Part shown: positions 55,757 to 61,326 of the stretch, piece by piece
Layout: the number at the start of each line of letters is the position of its first letter
Numbering within the stretch: the stretch's first letter is position 1
Assembly: GCA_046758005.1 (NCBI GenBank)
Contig: JBHHZJ010000003.1
Span: forward strand, 4,469-68,468
Length of the DNA: 64,000 nucleotides
Direction: 5' to 3'
From: Kiloniellaceae bacterium
GTDB lineage: Bacteria; Pseudomonadota; Alphaproteobacteria; Kiloniellales; J153
Translations under genes and position numbers: made by a program
Notes under the pieces: generated by a model
What the model was told of the DNA's origin: nothing
The model's database searches: none
The model's input: the letters and a program-made list of their open reading frames with translations, nothing else

Positions 55757-58117
55757 GTGGACGTGATCAACGAGACCGGTCTGCAGACCGCCTGGCTCCA
55801 GGGGCGGATCCGGTTCCCGCAGCATTCGCTCACCCTGATCGTCAAGGGCACCTTCCGCTTGGCGCCGGGCGGGGTGGCGGCGCTCGACGAGGAAGCGGAC
55901 CAGCCGCCGGTGACCGGCGACGTGTTCTACGACGACGAGCCCGAGAACGGCTGCCGCTACGAGACCGACTTCGTCCACTTCAAGCCGCGCGCCGATCTCC
56001 TGCTCGTCGGCACCTGCCACGCGCCGGAGGCCCGGCCCGTGCCAGCCTGCCGCGTGTCCTTCGGGGTCGGGGACCGGGTCAAGTCGCTCGCCGTCTTCGG
56101 CGACCGCACCTGGACCGGCAATGGACCGGCACGACGGCCGAGCGATCCCGTGCCCTTCACGACCATGCCGCTCGACTACCGCCATGCCTACGGCGGCGAG
56201 GGCTGCGCCCAGAATCCCCTCGGCAAGGGGTTCGCCGGGACCACGACGTCCGACGGCCGGACGATCTGGCCGCTGCCCAACATCGCCGATCCGAACCAGG
56301 CCATCGGGACGCCGGGTCAGGCGTCCAGGCCCGCCGGCTTCGGGCCGTTGGGGCGCATGTGGCCGCAGCGCCGGGCCAACATGGGAACCTACGACGAGAA
56401 GTGGCAGAACGAGCGCTGGCCCTGGTACCCCGCCGACTTCGACTGGGGCCATTTCAACGCCGCGCCCGCCGACCAGCAGGTGGAGGGCTACTTGCGCGGC
56501 GACGAAGCGCTGTTGTTCGAGAACCTGCACCCCGAGCACCCCGAGTACCGCTCGCGCCTGCCCGGCCTGCGCGTACGCTGTTTCCTGCACGAGCAATACG
56601 AGGGCCGGCGGCTCGTCCGCGACGTGCCCATGAAGCTCGATACGCTGTGGGCCGACATGGGCGCGGAAGAGGTGGTGCTGGTGTGGCGCGGATTGGCCAC
56701 CGTGCGTTCGCAGGACATCGACGAGCTGGAGCACCTCATGGTCGTGACCGAGCCCGTCGCCGAGGCGCCCCGGCCCACCGAGCATTACGCGCAGCAGATG
56801 GCCGAACGCCTGGCCGAAGCGGAAGCCGGGACGGTCGGCGCCGCGCCGGAACCCGCGCCGGCCGAAGCGGACGCCGAGGTCGATGTCGATCTTGCGGCGG
56901 TCGAGGCCGACGTCAAGGCCGAGGTCGCGGCGGCCCTCGACCGGATGCGCGAACAGATGAGCGCCTCGCGCGTCGATTTCGACAAAGTCAAAAGCATCGT
57001 GCTCGCCGCCGACCCCGTCGCGGCCCTGAACGAATTCCTGGCGGAGGCCGGCGTGGACCCGGCCGGGATCGAGACCACCTTGGAAGCGGGCCGGCAGCAG
57101 GCGATGGCGCTCCTGAAAACGCGCGGTTTGGACCCCGGCCTGGCGGCCGAGCTCGAGAAACAGGCAAAGGGCGGGGCAGGCGCCGAGGTCCCGCCGCCCG
57201 AGTTGCCCGCGGCGCGCGCCGCGCCGGGCGCCGATTTCGTCGGTGAGGACCTGAGCGGCGCGGACTTCTCCGGGCGGGACCTCAAGGGCGCCGACTTCAG
57301 GGACGCGATTCTCGCGGGCGCGAACTTCGCGGGCGCCGAGCTCGGCGAGGCGGACTTCACCGGGGCCAACCTGGGAAGCGCGAACCTGGGCGAGGCGAGG
57401 CTCGCCGGCGCCAAATTGGACGGGGCCGACCTGACCCGGGCGGTGCTCGGCGGGGCGGAACTGACCCGCGCCTCGCTCGCCGGCGCCACCTTGGAGGAGG
57501 CGGATCTGAGCGGCGCCAACCTCGCCGGCGCATCGGCGCCGGAGGCGAGCTTCGTCGGCGCCACCCTGACGGAGGCGAACCTGGAGGGCGCGGCACTCGA
57601 GAAGGCCGATCTTTCCAGGGCCACGCTCGACCGCGCCAACTTTCAGGACGCGGCGCTCGCCCGCGTCGAGTGCGGCGGCGCCGCGGGCGCCGGGCTCGTC
57701 ATGACGGGAGCGGACGTGACCGAGCTCAGGGCCGGCGGCTGCCGCTTCCCCGGAGGCGCGTTCCAGAACCTGCGCGGCGAAGGCTCCCTGTGGTTCGAGT
57801 CCGATCTGTCGGGGGCGGACTTCACCGCGTCCGATCTCGTCCGGGCGGACTTCCGCGGCGCCGACCTGCGGAGCAGCAACTTCCATGCGGTCGAGCTGAA
57901 AAACGGCAACCTGACCAAGGCGAACCTGAGTGCGGCCCGGTTCACGGCGGTCAACCTGTTCCAGGTGCGCCTCGACAAGGCGGACCTGACCGGGACCGAT
58001 CTGAGGGGCAGCAACTGTTACGAAGCCGATTTCATCGACGCCGTGATCACCGGCGCCCGGTTCGAGCGGGCAAACCTGACGATGACCAAGCTGGCCCGGC
58101 TCCACGCGCAAGGGTGA
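55757..58117 (+). CDS. DUF2169 domain protein fused to C-terminal pentapeptide repeats (TagAB-like)
   Basis: GTG start. N-terminus MDVINETGLQTAWLQGRIRFPQHSLTLIVKGTFRL...DFVHFKPRADLLLVGTCHAP...VFGDRTW matches the DUF2169 pattern. C-terminal about 290 aa of A(D/N)LxG pentapeptide repeats. Confidence 0.85.
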   Translation: MDVINETGLQTAWLQGRIRFPQHSLTLIVKGTFRLAPGGVAALDEEADQPPVTGDVFYDDEPENGCRYETDFVHFKPRADLLLVGTCHAPEARPVPACRVSFGVGDRVKSLAVFGDRTWTGNGPARRPSDPVPFTTMPLDYRHAYGGEGCAQNPLGKGFAGTTTSDGRTIWPLPNIADPNQAIGTPGQASRPAGFGPLGRMWPQRRANMGTYDEKWQNERWPWYPADFDWGHFNAAPADQQVEGYLRGDEALLFENLHPEHPEYRSRLPGLRVRCFLHEQYEGRRLVRDVPMKLDTLWADMGAEEVVLVWRGLATVRSQDIDELEHLMVVTEPVAEAPRPTEHYAQQMAERLAEAEAGTVGAAPEPAPAEADAEVDVDLAAVEADVKAEVAAALDRMREQMSASRVDFDKVKSIVLAADPVAALNEFLAEAGVDPAGIETTLEAGRQQAMALLKTRGLDPGLAAELEKQAKGGAGAEVPPPELPAARAAPGADFVGEDLSGADFSGRDLKGADFRDAILAGANFAGAELGEADFTGANLGSANLGEARLAGAKLDGADLTRAVLGGAELTRASLAGATLEEADLSGANLAGASAPEASFVGATLTEANLEGAALEKADLSRATLDRANFQDAALARVECGGAAGAGLVMTGADVTELRAGGCRFPGGAFQNLRGEGSLWFESDLSGADFTASDLVRADFRGADLRSSNFHAVELKNGNLTKANLSAARFTAVNLFQVRLDKADLTGTDLRGSNCYEADFIDAVITGARFERANLTMTKLARLHAQG

Positions 58118-58125
58118 CCACGACC

Positions 58126-60898: not shown

Positions 60899-60912
60899 GA
60901 AAGGAAGGTCCG

Positions 60913-61326
60913 ATGTTCTTCGTCAACACCAACATGGGCGGCACGTGCATTGCCATGGCGCCGGACGTCGGCAAGACGCCGTCGCCCGGCGGGCCCGTGC
61001 CGGTCCCCTATCCGAACATGTCGATGCTGGTACAGGTCATCCCGGTGACCGCGGCGAAGTTCACCAAGATCCTCAACCGGCCGGTGGTCCTGGCGAACTC
61101 CACGGTCTCCATGTCTTCGGGCGACGAGGGCGCGACGGCGGGCGGCGGCGTGGTATCCAACCTCATCAAGGGGCCGACCCAGTTCACGACGTTCAGCAAG
61201 TTTAGTTTCTTCGAAGGCCAGCCGGTGACGTACCATACGGCGGACACCAAGCAAAACGGGTCCAACGCCAACACCATCGGCAAGGTCGCCGCCCCCTCGC
61301 AGACCCTCGTGACGGTCTCGGGATAG
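60913..61326 (+). CDS. PAAR-like DUF4150 domain protein (spike tip, no toxin extension)
   Basis: MFFVNTNMGGTCIAMAPDVGKTPSPGGPVPVPYPNMSM matches the DUF4150 N-terminal pattern. Only 137 aa. Confidence 0.8.
   Translation: MFFVNTNMGGTCIAMAPDVGKTPSPGGPVPVPYPNMSMLVQVIPVTAAKFTKILNRPVVLANSTVSMSSGDEGATAGGGVVSNLIKGPTQFTTFSKFSFFEGQPVTYHTADTKQNGSNANTIGKVAAPSQTLVTVSG

Follow-up and report, generated by a model that had tools for sequence, protein, structure and literature searches.

Four genes downstream of vgrG in an uncultured Kiloniellaceae bacterium very probably encode a Class III Tvp spike-chaperone system

A 64,000-nucleotide (nt) stretch of DNA from a Kiloniellaceae bacterium (assembly GCA_046758005.1, contig JBHHZJ010000003.1, positions 4,469 to 68,468 of the forward strand; hereafter the window) contains four tightly packed genes that directly follow vgrG and close a type VI secretion system (T6SS) cluster. 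They encode a DUF2169 protein with pentapeptide repeats, a second pentapeptide-repeat protein, a DUF3540 protein and a small DUF4150 PAAR-like protein. Very probably, the four genes constitute a Class III Tvp system, equivalent to TvpAB-TvpB-TvpC-Paar1 of Serratia and to tagAB-tagB-tagC-tagD of Burkholderia. The evidence consists of the gene structure, the domain identities, a PIPY-type cap protein, homology to a Burkholderiaceae gene set and wide synteny, to which modelling adds a predicted spike-like fold of the DUF3540 protein. The block had been pointed out in an original prediction as a toxin-less spike accessory module of essentially unexplained function.

The Tvp proteins (Tag protein chaperoning VgrG-PAAR) were described by Monlezun, Earl and Coulthurst (EMBO J 2026, PMC13373197) for SMDB11_2247-2249, located together with paar1 downstream of vgrG1 in Serratia marcescens. 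The names TvpAB (DUF2169 and pentapeptide repeats), TvpB (pentapeptide repeats) and TvpC (DUF3540) were chosen after Burkholderia tagAB, tagB and tagC. In the accompanying classification, Class I has DUF2169 only, Class II has a DUF6484 surrogate and TvpD, and Class III has a DUF3540 surrogate and pentapeptide proteins. Every tvp gene and paar1 are needed for VgrG1-dependent killing by Serratia, and each is needed for Hcp secretion when VgrG2 is absent. Reciprocal pull-downs yielded two mutually exclusive complexes, TvpC-TvpAB-TvpB-Paar1 and VgrG1-TvpAB-TvpB-Paar1, the former being required for the latter. TvpC was modelled as a trimeric OB-fold followed by a beta-prism, without gp27, which acts as a surrogate VgrG tip, and mutations in its interfaces abolish function. 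According to this model, which is anchored in experiments, TvpAB uses its pentapeptide part to help wrap the TvpC/VgrG-PAAR tip (all PMC13373197). The role of pentapeptide helices in a T6SS, presented as a puzzle in the original prediction, has therefore had an answer since 2026.

Similarly, the statement that there was nothing obvious for the adaptor to load does not hold. DUF2169 proteins chaperone PIPY/DUF4150 domains (Sachar et al., JBC 2025, PMC11883445), and what is loaded is the DUF4150 tip protein, by way of which the VgrG tip is also served (PMC11883445, PMC13373197). The pentapeptide-containing "synteny type C" accounts for approximately 37% of DUF2169 genes (4505 genomes; PMC11883445). 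In Burkholderia, the order vgrG-5, tagA/B-5, tagB-5, tagC-5, tagD-5 is given in Table 1 of PMC6335564, in agreement with the original prediction. The tag genes of Burkholderia T6SS-5 are needed for Hcp-5 secretion and sheath assembly (2026 review), and in B. glumae the DUF2169 part and the pentapeptide part are both required (PMC8747328).

The window has the same composition. An N-terminal DUF2169 domain is fused to a C-terminal pentapeptide-repeat domain in TvpAB, whose gene begins 63 nt after vgrG. A separate pentapeptide protein, TvpB, is encoded 8 nt further downstream, and the block also includes a DUF3540 protein, TvpC, with a predicted VgrG-like OB-fold and beta structure lacking gp27, as well as a DUF4150/PIPY protein. 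A specialised ("evolved") VgrG with a known effector domain is not evident, as no recognisable toxin or enzyme family is found in the C-terminal extension. A Pfam search returned all four domain assignments and all four accession numbers as originally given, with the open reading frame (ORF) at 55757 falling in DUF2169 and that at 60913 in DUF4150. The coordinates of these genes and of the other features discussed are collected in Table 1.

Table 1. Features of the window and of related loci; positions in loci other than the window refer to the respective locus (L numbers).
Feature	Locus	Position (nt)	Strand	Remarks
vgrG	window	52532-55693	+	1053 aa; Phage_GPD E 2e-84, Phage_base_V; TIGR03361 E 2e-105
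VgrG C-terminal domain	window	54510-55693	+	~390 aa; hairpin ~55148-55405
ORF1, tvpAB-like	window	55757-58117	+	786 aa, GTG start
DUF2169 domain of TvpAB	window	55823-56689	+	aa 23-311; PF09937 E 2e-97
Middle region of TvpAB	window	56690-57223	+	aa 312-489; Ala/Glu-rich, probably helical
Pentapeptide-repeat beta-helix of TvpAB	window	57224-58099	+	aa ~490-781; PF00805, PF13599, PF13576
ORF2, tvpB-like	window	58126-59988	+	620 aa
15-nt tandem arrays in tvpB	window	58909-59057		coding ADLSG
ORF3, tvpC-like	window	60017-60898	+	293 aa, DUF3540
ORF4, DUF4150 PAAR-like (PIPY-type) tip protein	window	60913-61326	+	137 aa
Transglutaminase-like cysteine protease-fold gene	window	61398-62333	+	311 aa; Bact_transglu_N and Transglut_core (Pfam)
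orf263/265, ~263-aa family	window	62420-63211	+	
251-aa ORF	window	63322-64000		no Pfam match; runs off window end
GAF/sigma-54 activator gene	window	49034-50704		upstream of hcp genes
First hcp	window	50977-51492		
Second hcp	window	51887-52405		
Promoter-like sequences	window	50908-50922, 51817-51831		sigma-54 type
Terminator-like hairpin	window	51522-51548		after first hcp
Caspase fusion gene	window	22581-25019		812 aa
DUF4384/TPR protein gene	window	20510-22309		strand opposite to caspase fusion gene
Transglutaminase-like homologue	L001	11307-12200		
Transglutaminase-like homologue	L008	7598-8455		
Transglutaminase-like homologue	L012	11385-12281		
Transglutaminase-like homologue	L013	11520-12404		
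Transglutaminase-like homologue	L014	12995-13819		
Transglutaminase-like homologue	L016	9107-9973		
Transglutaminase-like homologue	L020	5622-6455		
~263-aa family copy	L015	10001-10792		between tssE and tssF
~263-aa family copy	L017	10001-10825		directly after PAAR gene
~263-aa family copy	L019	7001-7792		
~263-aa family copy	L020	7001-7795		
251-aa ORF	L009	4364-5119		
251-aa ORF	L016	10855-11610		
251-aa ORF	L017	10887-11642		
531-536-aa gene	L005	7341-8936		
531-536-aa gene	L006	11415-13025		
531-536-aa gene	L007	11373-12968		
VipA/VipB gene	L017	12238-13923		
VipA/VipB gene	L019	9468-11384		

The gaps between vgrG and the four successive ORFs are 63, 8, 28 and 14 nt, exactly as first described. 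A Shine-Dalgarno-like AGG/GGAG motif is located 6-12 nt 5' of the start of every ORF in the block. The GC content at third codon positions (GC3) is 0.81-0.91, as in other real genes of this 68% GC window, a test failed by the many overlapping ORFs in other frames. As no terminator-like hairpin occurs on the plus strand from vgrG to the window end, vgrG and the four genes probably form a single transcription unit. No Rfam family was found in the window.

Only one DUF2169 structure has been solved, the crystal structure 8vth, and the DUF2169 domain of TvpAB matches it with an E-value of 6e-27. The adjoining middle region comprises 178 aa, is rich in Ala, Glu and Leu, and carries a net charge of -19. 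It was originally termed an acidic linker; it is probably not a passive linker, since the corresponding part of TvpAB in the Serratia model is an alpha-helical region gripping the TvpC prism (PMC13373197). TvpB is matched by PF00805 with an E-value of 6e-111 in 13 stretches, and its repeats occupy residues ~31-88 and ~127-586, interrupted by a non-repeat insert of about 40 aa. Part of tvpB consists of short DNA tandem arrays. The in-phase pentapeptide content is ~290 aa in TvpAB, in agreement with the first estimate, and ~460-520 aa in TvpB. By the repeat map, the total is thus ~750-800 residues instead of the 900 proposed.

PF12059 matches TvpC at residues 188-293 with an E-value of 2.5e-23 and is present in all 49 TvpC homologues. 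In silico modelling with AlphaFold2 (AF2), using a 39-sequence alignment of DUF3540 homologues, gave a mean predicted local distance difference test score (pLDDT) of 76, with ~90 over residues 20-200. The model contains an OB-like barrel at residues ~20-81, followed by extended strands up to residue ~220, and no gp27 domain. Its best Foldseek match in the Protein Data Bank (PDB) is the R2 pyocin spike 4s37 (E 5e-7, probability 1.00). The further matches 6rbk, 9gtr, 6j0m, 9qgm, 9mlp and 3qr8 are the central spikes of AFP, a Streptomyces contractile injection system and PVC, Salmonella VgrS, and P2 gpV. The resemblance to phage and pyocin spike proteins supports the role of a VgrG stand-in, and TvpC is accordingly predicted by the model to be a mini-spike that takes the place of the VgrG tip in a pre-complex. 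An N-terminal OB-fold with spike-like extended beta structure also describes the protein better than the beta-helix-like C-terminus that had been suggested.

The fourth protein is matched by PF13665 (DUF4150/Tox-PAAR-like, E 1e-23) over residues 13-120 of 137, which leaves no room for a toxin domain and agrees with the original description of a PAAR-like protein without a C-terminal toxin. Canonical PAAR tips (PF05488) carry PAAR motifs and bind VgrG without a chaperone. No PAAR motif occurs in ORF4, PF13665 is the sole family matched, and the protein does not qualify for PF05488. The absence of this motif, together with a PVPY motif at residues 30-33, assigns the protein to the "PIPY" type of Sachar et al. 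It is 87% identical to its orthologues in loci L001 and L011.

Among the characterised systems, the Class III system of Serratia Db10 consists of the same four proteins by domain in the same order, likewise downstream of an unusually long VgrG and in the main T6SS cluster. The two loci differ upstream of tvpAB, where Serratia has the immunity gene vai1 and another gene after vgrG1, while the window has a 63-nt gap. Moreover, Serratia VgrG1 is a protein of 786 aa that was modelled as one long beta-prism, whereas the 1053-aa VgrG of the window has a polar linker and, beyond it, a distinct C-terminal domain that includes a hydrophobic hairpin.

The T6SS-5 of Burkholderia pseudomallei and Burkholderia thailandensis shows identical gene order and domain content (PMC6335564, PMC9635284, PMC13584744). 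The window matches tagAB-tagB-tagC-tagD in both respects, with sequence homology established by BLASTP against the Caballeronia set. VgrG-5 of approximately 1000 aa, whose C-terminal domain is an effector mediating membrane fusion, resembles the long VgrG of the window, and TagD-5, a small toxin-less PAAR-like protein that stabilises VgrG-5, resembles the tip protein. In Burkholderia, the block is located between clpV and tssJKLM, in contrast to its position at the end of the cluster in the window. The host differs as well, the window originating from an uncultured environmental bacterium that is nearest to a Kiloniellaceae metagenome-assembled genome (MAG).

Classes I and II (Agrobacterium Tap2/Tde2; P. 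aeruginosa PA0096-PA0098/Tse7 and Vibrio VP1395-1399/VP1415, respectively) likewise use DUF2169 proteins to chaperone DUF4150/PIPY domains at the VgrG tip. The Agrobacterium precedent cited for a DUF2169-PAAR adaptor was apt. Unlike the window, both classes have single-domain DUF2169 proteins, no pentapeptide proteins and a PIPY domain fused to a toxin. Class II is further set apart by a short DUF6484 surrogate and the thiolase-like TvpD.

Homologues of all five proteins, VgrG included, are encoded on plasmid p2 of Caballeronia grimmiae (NZ_CP084275.1), with PIPY at the position of the PVPY motif in the window. The order is permuted in this plasmid: pentapeptide-repeat protein (PRP), DUF3540, DUF4150, vgrG, DUF2169-PRP. 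BLASTP aligned TvpAB with the RefSeq "DUF2169 domain-containing protein" of p2 at 30% identity over ~800 aa (E 7e-57) and TvpB with the pentapeptide protein at 34% (E 3e-40). The E-value for TvpC was 2e-9; the PAAR-like protein matched the DUF4150 protein at 38% (E 4e-13), and VgrG gave E 6e-105. A search of the PLSDB plasmids with the DUF2169 domain returned 189 records, one of which is this annotated set; tblastn of TvpC against PLSDB gave nothing at E 1e-3. For the genome scan for TvpC, the 39-sequence alignment was too divergent as a seed, and an alignment of 11 sequences worked.

Synteny extends well beyond these genera. The vgrG-AB-B-C-PAAR block was found in Kiloniellaceae, Sorangium, three Desulfobacterota MAGs, several gammaproteobacterial MAGs and Paraglaciecola. 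The recurrence of the same gene set across Alphaproteobacteria, Gammaproteobacteria, Myxococcota and Desulfobacterota, which had been proposed as a check, indicates that the block is not a chance arrangement. The nearest genome, the Kiloniellaceae MAG, has the same gene order with protein identities of 54-87%, its TvpAB being 71% identical. Orthologues in two other assemblies have the same lengths and 59-87% identity. The exact proteins of the window were found only on contigs assembled from runs SRR29324609 and SRR29324611.

Based on the Serratia and Vibrio work, a course of spike assembly can be inferred for the window by analogy. TvpC would trimerise into a short spike of OB-fold and beta-prism without a gp27 hub, mimicking the VgrG tip, and this surrogate would be capped by the 137-aa DUF4150/PIPY protein. 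TvpAB would shield the hydrophobic side of this cap with its DUF2169 domain and wrap the prism with its helical middle region and its pentapeptide beta-helix, and TvpB would close the assembly in the manner of a seat belt. From the resulting cytoplasmic pre-complex, the cap with its chaperones would be transferred to the beta tail at the C-terminus of the 1053-aa VgrG, which would displace TvpC. Baseplate, tube and sheath would assemble and fire only after this hand-over, and the chaperones would stay in the cell. The delivered entity would be the VgrG-PAAR spike itself, with the VgrG C-terminal domain as its likely active part.

Several observations weigh against the assignment to Class III or against its details. 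The likeness to Serratia is one of domain content and gene order. The DUF3540 profile matches TvpC in its C-terminal half only, identity to the Burkholderiaceae counterpart is 28% over the C-terminal 109 aa, and residues 225-263 are modelled with low confidence. TM-scores of the TvpC monomer model to spike structures are low (0.18-0.25), which can be attributed to the modelling of a monomer from an intertwined trimer. With 620 and 293 aa, TvpB and TvpC are considerably larger than in Caballeronia (335 and 222 aa), and the geometry of the wrap may therefore differ from the Serratia model. Finally, the uncultured source organism is known only from metagenome assemblies.

The alternative that fares best is that the module serves as an adaptor for a separate cargo. 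In this case, the candidate cargo is the transglutaminase-like protein, whose gene begins 71 nt after the PAAR-like gene. Carried on the VgrG-PAAR tip, it would function inside target cells as a protease, a deamidase or a cross-linker; a role of the module in spike assembly could coexist with such a function. The sequence contains the catalytic Cys (GVCQDF), His (SHAW) and Asp (VDVDP), and homologues follow the PAAR-like gene, directly or one gene on, in seven further loci of distant lineages (Table 1), overlapping the PAAR stop by 4 nt in L001. Outside T6SS loci, however, proteins with the pair of Bact_transglu_N and Transglut_core are very common in bacteria and cytoplasmic. No such gene is found beside the module in L011 (TvpC 59% identical), L017, Sorangium, Desulfobacterota or Caballeronia. 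There is also no obvious immunity gene for this protein: orf265, which follows it, occurs without it and even inside core T6SS clusters. No link of the family to T6SS was found in the literature, and it is not mentioned in PMC13373197 or PMC11883445. The cargo explanation is hence considered rather unlikely. The protein could be a cargo, a processing enzyme or a hitch-hiker, and its membership of the module is not established.

Export of the pentapeptide proteins as weapons, be it to inhibit gyrase by DNA mimicry in the manner of Qnr and MfpA or to act on host cells like PipB2, is very improbable. Through the shared repeat, both proteins show weak similarity to the NCBIfam models of Qnr, MfpA, PipB/PipB2 and HetL, while remaining below all curated cut-offs, mostly far below. 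TvpAB and TvpB reach 69 and 146 bits for Qnr (cut-off 240), 52 and 117 bits for MfpA (360), and 103 and 216 bits for PipB2 (354). The closest approach to a cut-off is that of TvpB to the HetL model, with 247.5 against 260 bits. The Serratia secretome was never seen to contain TvpAB or TvpB, and Hcp is no longer secreted when they are lost, the phenotype of an assembly factor and not of an effector (PMC13373197). Burkholderia TagA/B-5 is stated to act "not as an effector protein" (PMC6335564). The strict co-occurrence of the pentapeptide proteins with DUF3540 and DUF4150 proteins fits a structural complex.

It is scarcely credible that the block is what remains of a T6SS auxiliary cluster in decay or out of use, as no supporting point was found, every ORF is intact, with a ribosome-binding site and a high GC3, the core tss genes checked are all present upstream, and orthologues keep their lengths in two assemblies.

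With the Class III assignment thus preferred, attention turns to the VgrG that the module would serve. The start of vgrG at 52532 agrees with that of the Kiloniellaceae orthologue. Its product consists of a gp27/gp5-like core (residues 1-~500), a polar low-complexity linker (~505-660) and a non-canonical C-terminal domain (~660-1053); solved VgrG structures match residues 18-480 only. The description of the module as toxin-less is correct for its four proteins, and misleading for the locus in view of this domain and the transglutaminase-like gene.

No Pfam or NCBIfam family was detected past residue ~500, save a sub-threshold match to the Francisella TssI tail, and the C-terminal domain has no PDB sequence match and no significant fold match (best E 0.17). 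Its conserved motifs are YLRxG, YTxGNRT, WR.TE and GDsEsgFaGFKFDG. Hydropathy analysis reveals two Gly/Ala-rich hydrophobic segments at residues 888-918 and 930-949, separated by an acidic loop and followed by a beta tail, which should carry the PAAR tip. The AF2 model of the domain has a low overall pLDDT of 56 and cannot be interpreted beyond a helical hairpin and the beta tail. In its better-modelled parts, the helices at residues 873-899 and 927-958 and the following strands have pLDDT values of 75-94, the helix ends by the loop being low.

An exhaustive phmmer search among 1.84 billion sequences identified 47 representative clusters with this domain at E<=1e-3, either at the end of VgrGs of 890-1100 aa or in free-standing proteins of 365-650 aa. 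An earlier word-indexed search with the C-terminal 397 aa had returned two matches only, as Gly/Ala-rich words swamped the candidate list. A profile built from the cluster sequences matches the VgrGs of almost every related locus, namely L001, L008, L011-L014, L016 and L017. In Sorangium, it matches separate proteins of 595-608 aa, the domain forming its own gene between a short vgrG and tvpAB. The profile has no match in the 749-aa VgrGs of Desulfobacterota or the 940-aa VgrG of Caballeronia. Identity with the fusogenic domain of Burkholderia VgrG-5 was considered and is unsupported. Ten cluster representatives were looked up by name, and Burkholderia is not among their sources; three had names, all of them VgrGs of gammaproteobacterial MAGs. 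The domain is hence probably not the VgrG-5 domain, although it may be a remote homologue. Strict coupling of the VgrG domain to the transglutaminase-like gene was also rejected, as the domain occurs without that gene in L011, L017 and Sorangium.

Judging from its sequence features, the C-terminal domain with the Gly/Ala-rich helical hairpin is a probable payload, toxic or membrane-active. Serratia VgrG1 has been associated with membrane depolarisation (PMC13373197), and Burkholderia VgrG-5 has an effector as its C-terminal domain (PMC9635284). By analogy with these two proteins, it may be inferred that a membrane-active spike tip is shielded by the large chaperone wrap until firing. No immunity-like gene lies between vgrG and tvpAB in the window.

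A broader proposal can be put forward tentatively: in this lineage, the module may be only half of a conserved eight-gene spike operon, in which the hairpin of the VgrG C-terminal domain is the real weapon and the three downstream proteins are undescribed T6SS components. The order would be vgrG, tvpAB, tvpB, tvpC, paar, the transglutaminase-like gene, orf263 and orf251. The GxxxG-containing hairpin would then be a membrane-inserting or pore-forming device, shielded by the pentapeptide wrap before firing, and the transglutaminase-like protein might either be a cargo or release the hairpin enzymatically. For the ~263-aa family, a role as a new accessory or regulatory factor is conceivable, since copies elsewhere have tssE and tssF on either side or adjoin genes for PpkA, PppA and FHA proteins.

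Class III is well populated, and the view of an unexplained, cargo-less module has been superseded by the work of 2025-2026, which provides the current answer to the pentapeptide question. What is new adjoins the module, namely the rare VgrG C-terminal domain and two recurrent downstream families. Class III modules of uncultured Alpha- and Gammaproteobacteria, Myxococcota and Desulfobacterota have TvpB and TvpC proteins much larger than those of Caballeronia, and the present case ties such modules to a C-terminal domain of VgrG that is uncharacterised and has a hairpin of membrane type. If this domain is an effector, the loci would offer a natural test of a proposal made for both Serratia VgrG1 and Burkholderia VgrG-5, namely that the purpose of Class III chaperones is to hold a membrane-active spike tip harmless until it is fired.

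The recurrence of the transglutaminase-like and ~263-aa families beside the modules is new, albeit secondary. The ~263-aa family is T6SS-associated and unannotated: even with a 30-sequence profile, it has no match in Pfam, NCBIfam or the PDB. Its 148 homologues, with 40-71% identity, span Alpha- and Gammaproteobacteria, Nitrospirota and Desulfobacterota. T6SS genes are located within a few kb of the family member in nine of eleven contexts inspected; in a tenth, L007, the copy is ~10 kb from the module on the opposite strand. The genes repeatedly adjoin those for PpkA, PP2C or FHA proteins, and they also occur without the transglutaminase-like gene and inside core T6SS clusters, for example in the Class II cluster of a Manganitrophaceae member (L015). 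In several loci, the ~263-aa gene is followed by the 251-aa ORF (Table 1).

In the Desulfobacterota modules, the PAAR-like gene is followed by a gene for a protein of 531-536 aa (L005, L006, L007). The version in L005, the one that was scanned, is a PKMT-like methyltransferase (MethyTransf_Reg and PKMT_2nd) in place of the transglutaminase-like protein; downstream of it, L005 encodes an FHA-SLT protein and has a copy of the ~263-aa family. In L017 and L019, single genes matching both T6SS_VipA and VipB are located beside ~263-aa members; these are apparent TssB-TssC fusions of 561-638 aa.

The placement of the module in a T6SS spike operon is confirmed by vgrG and by the cluster upstream, which is complete, the core tss genes checked being all present. 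It encodes Fha, TssJ, TssK, TssL, TssM, TssA, TssB, TssC, TssF, TssG and ClpV; tssE probably lies just upstream of tssF. The GAF/sigma-54 activator gene and the two hcp copies also belong to the cluster. A PpkA-type kinase and a PP2C phosphatase (pppA) are encoded on the minus strand of the cluster.

The two tandem hcp genes encode proteins differing at one residue near the C-terminus. The corresponding DNA repeat is 98% identical over 300 nt at a spacing of 913 nt, and a GC-rich terminator-like hairpin follows the first copy. Two hcp copies are also found in the Kiloniellaceae MAG and in L016. Sigma-54-type promoter-like sequences TGGCACGGNTCTTGT occur ~55 nt upstream of each hcp start, shortly after the GAF/sigma-54 activator gene; as their total in the window is not above chance, their positions alone are suggestive. 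Upstream of the T6SS cluster, a gene encodes a caspase (Peptidase_C14)-SH3-FGE-sulfatase fusion, and a DUF4384/TPR protein is encoded on the opposite strand.

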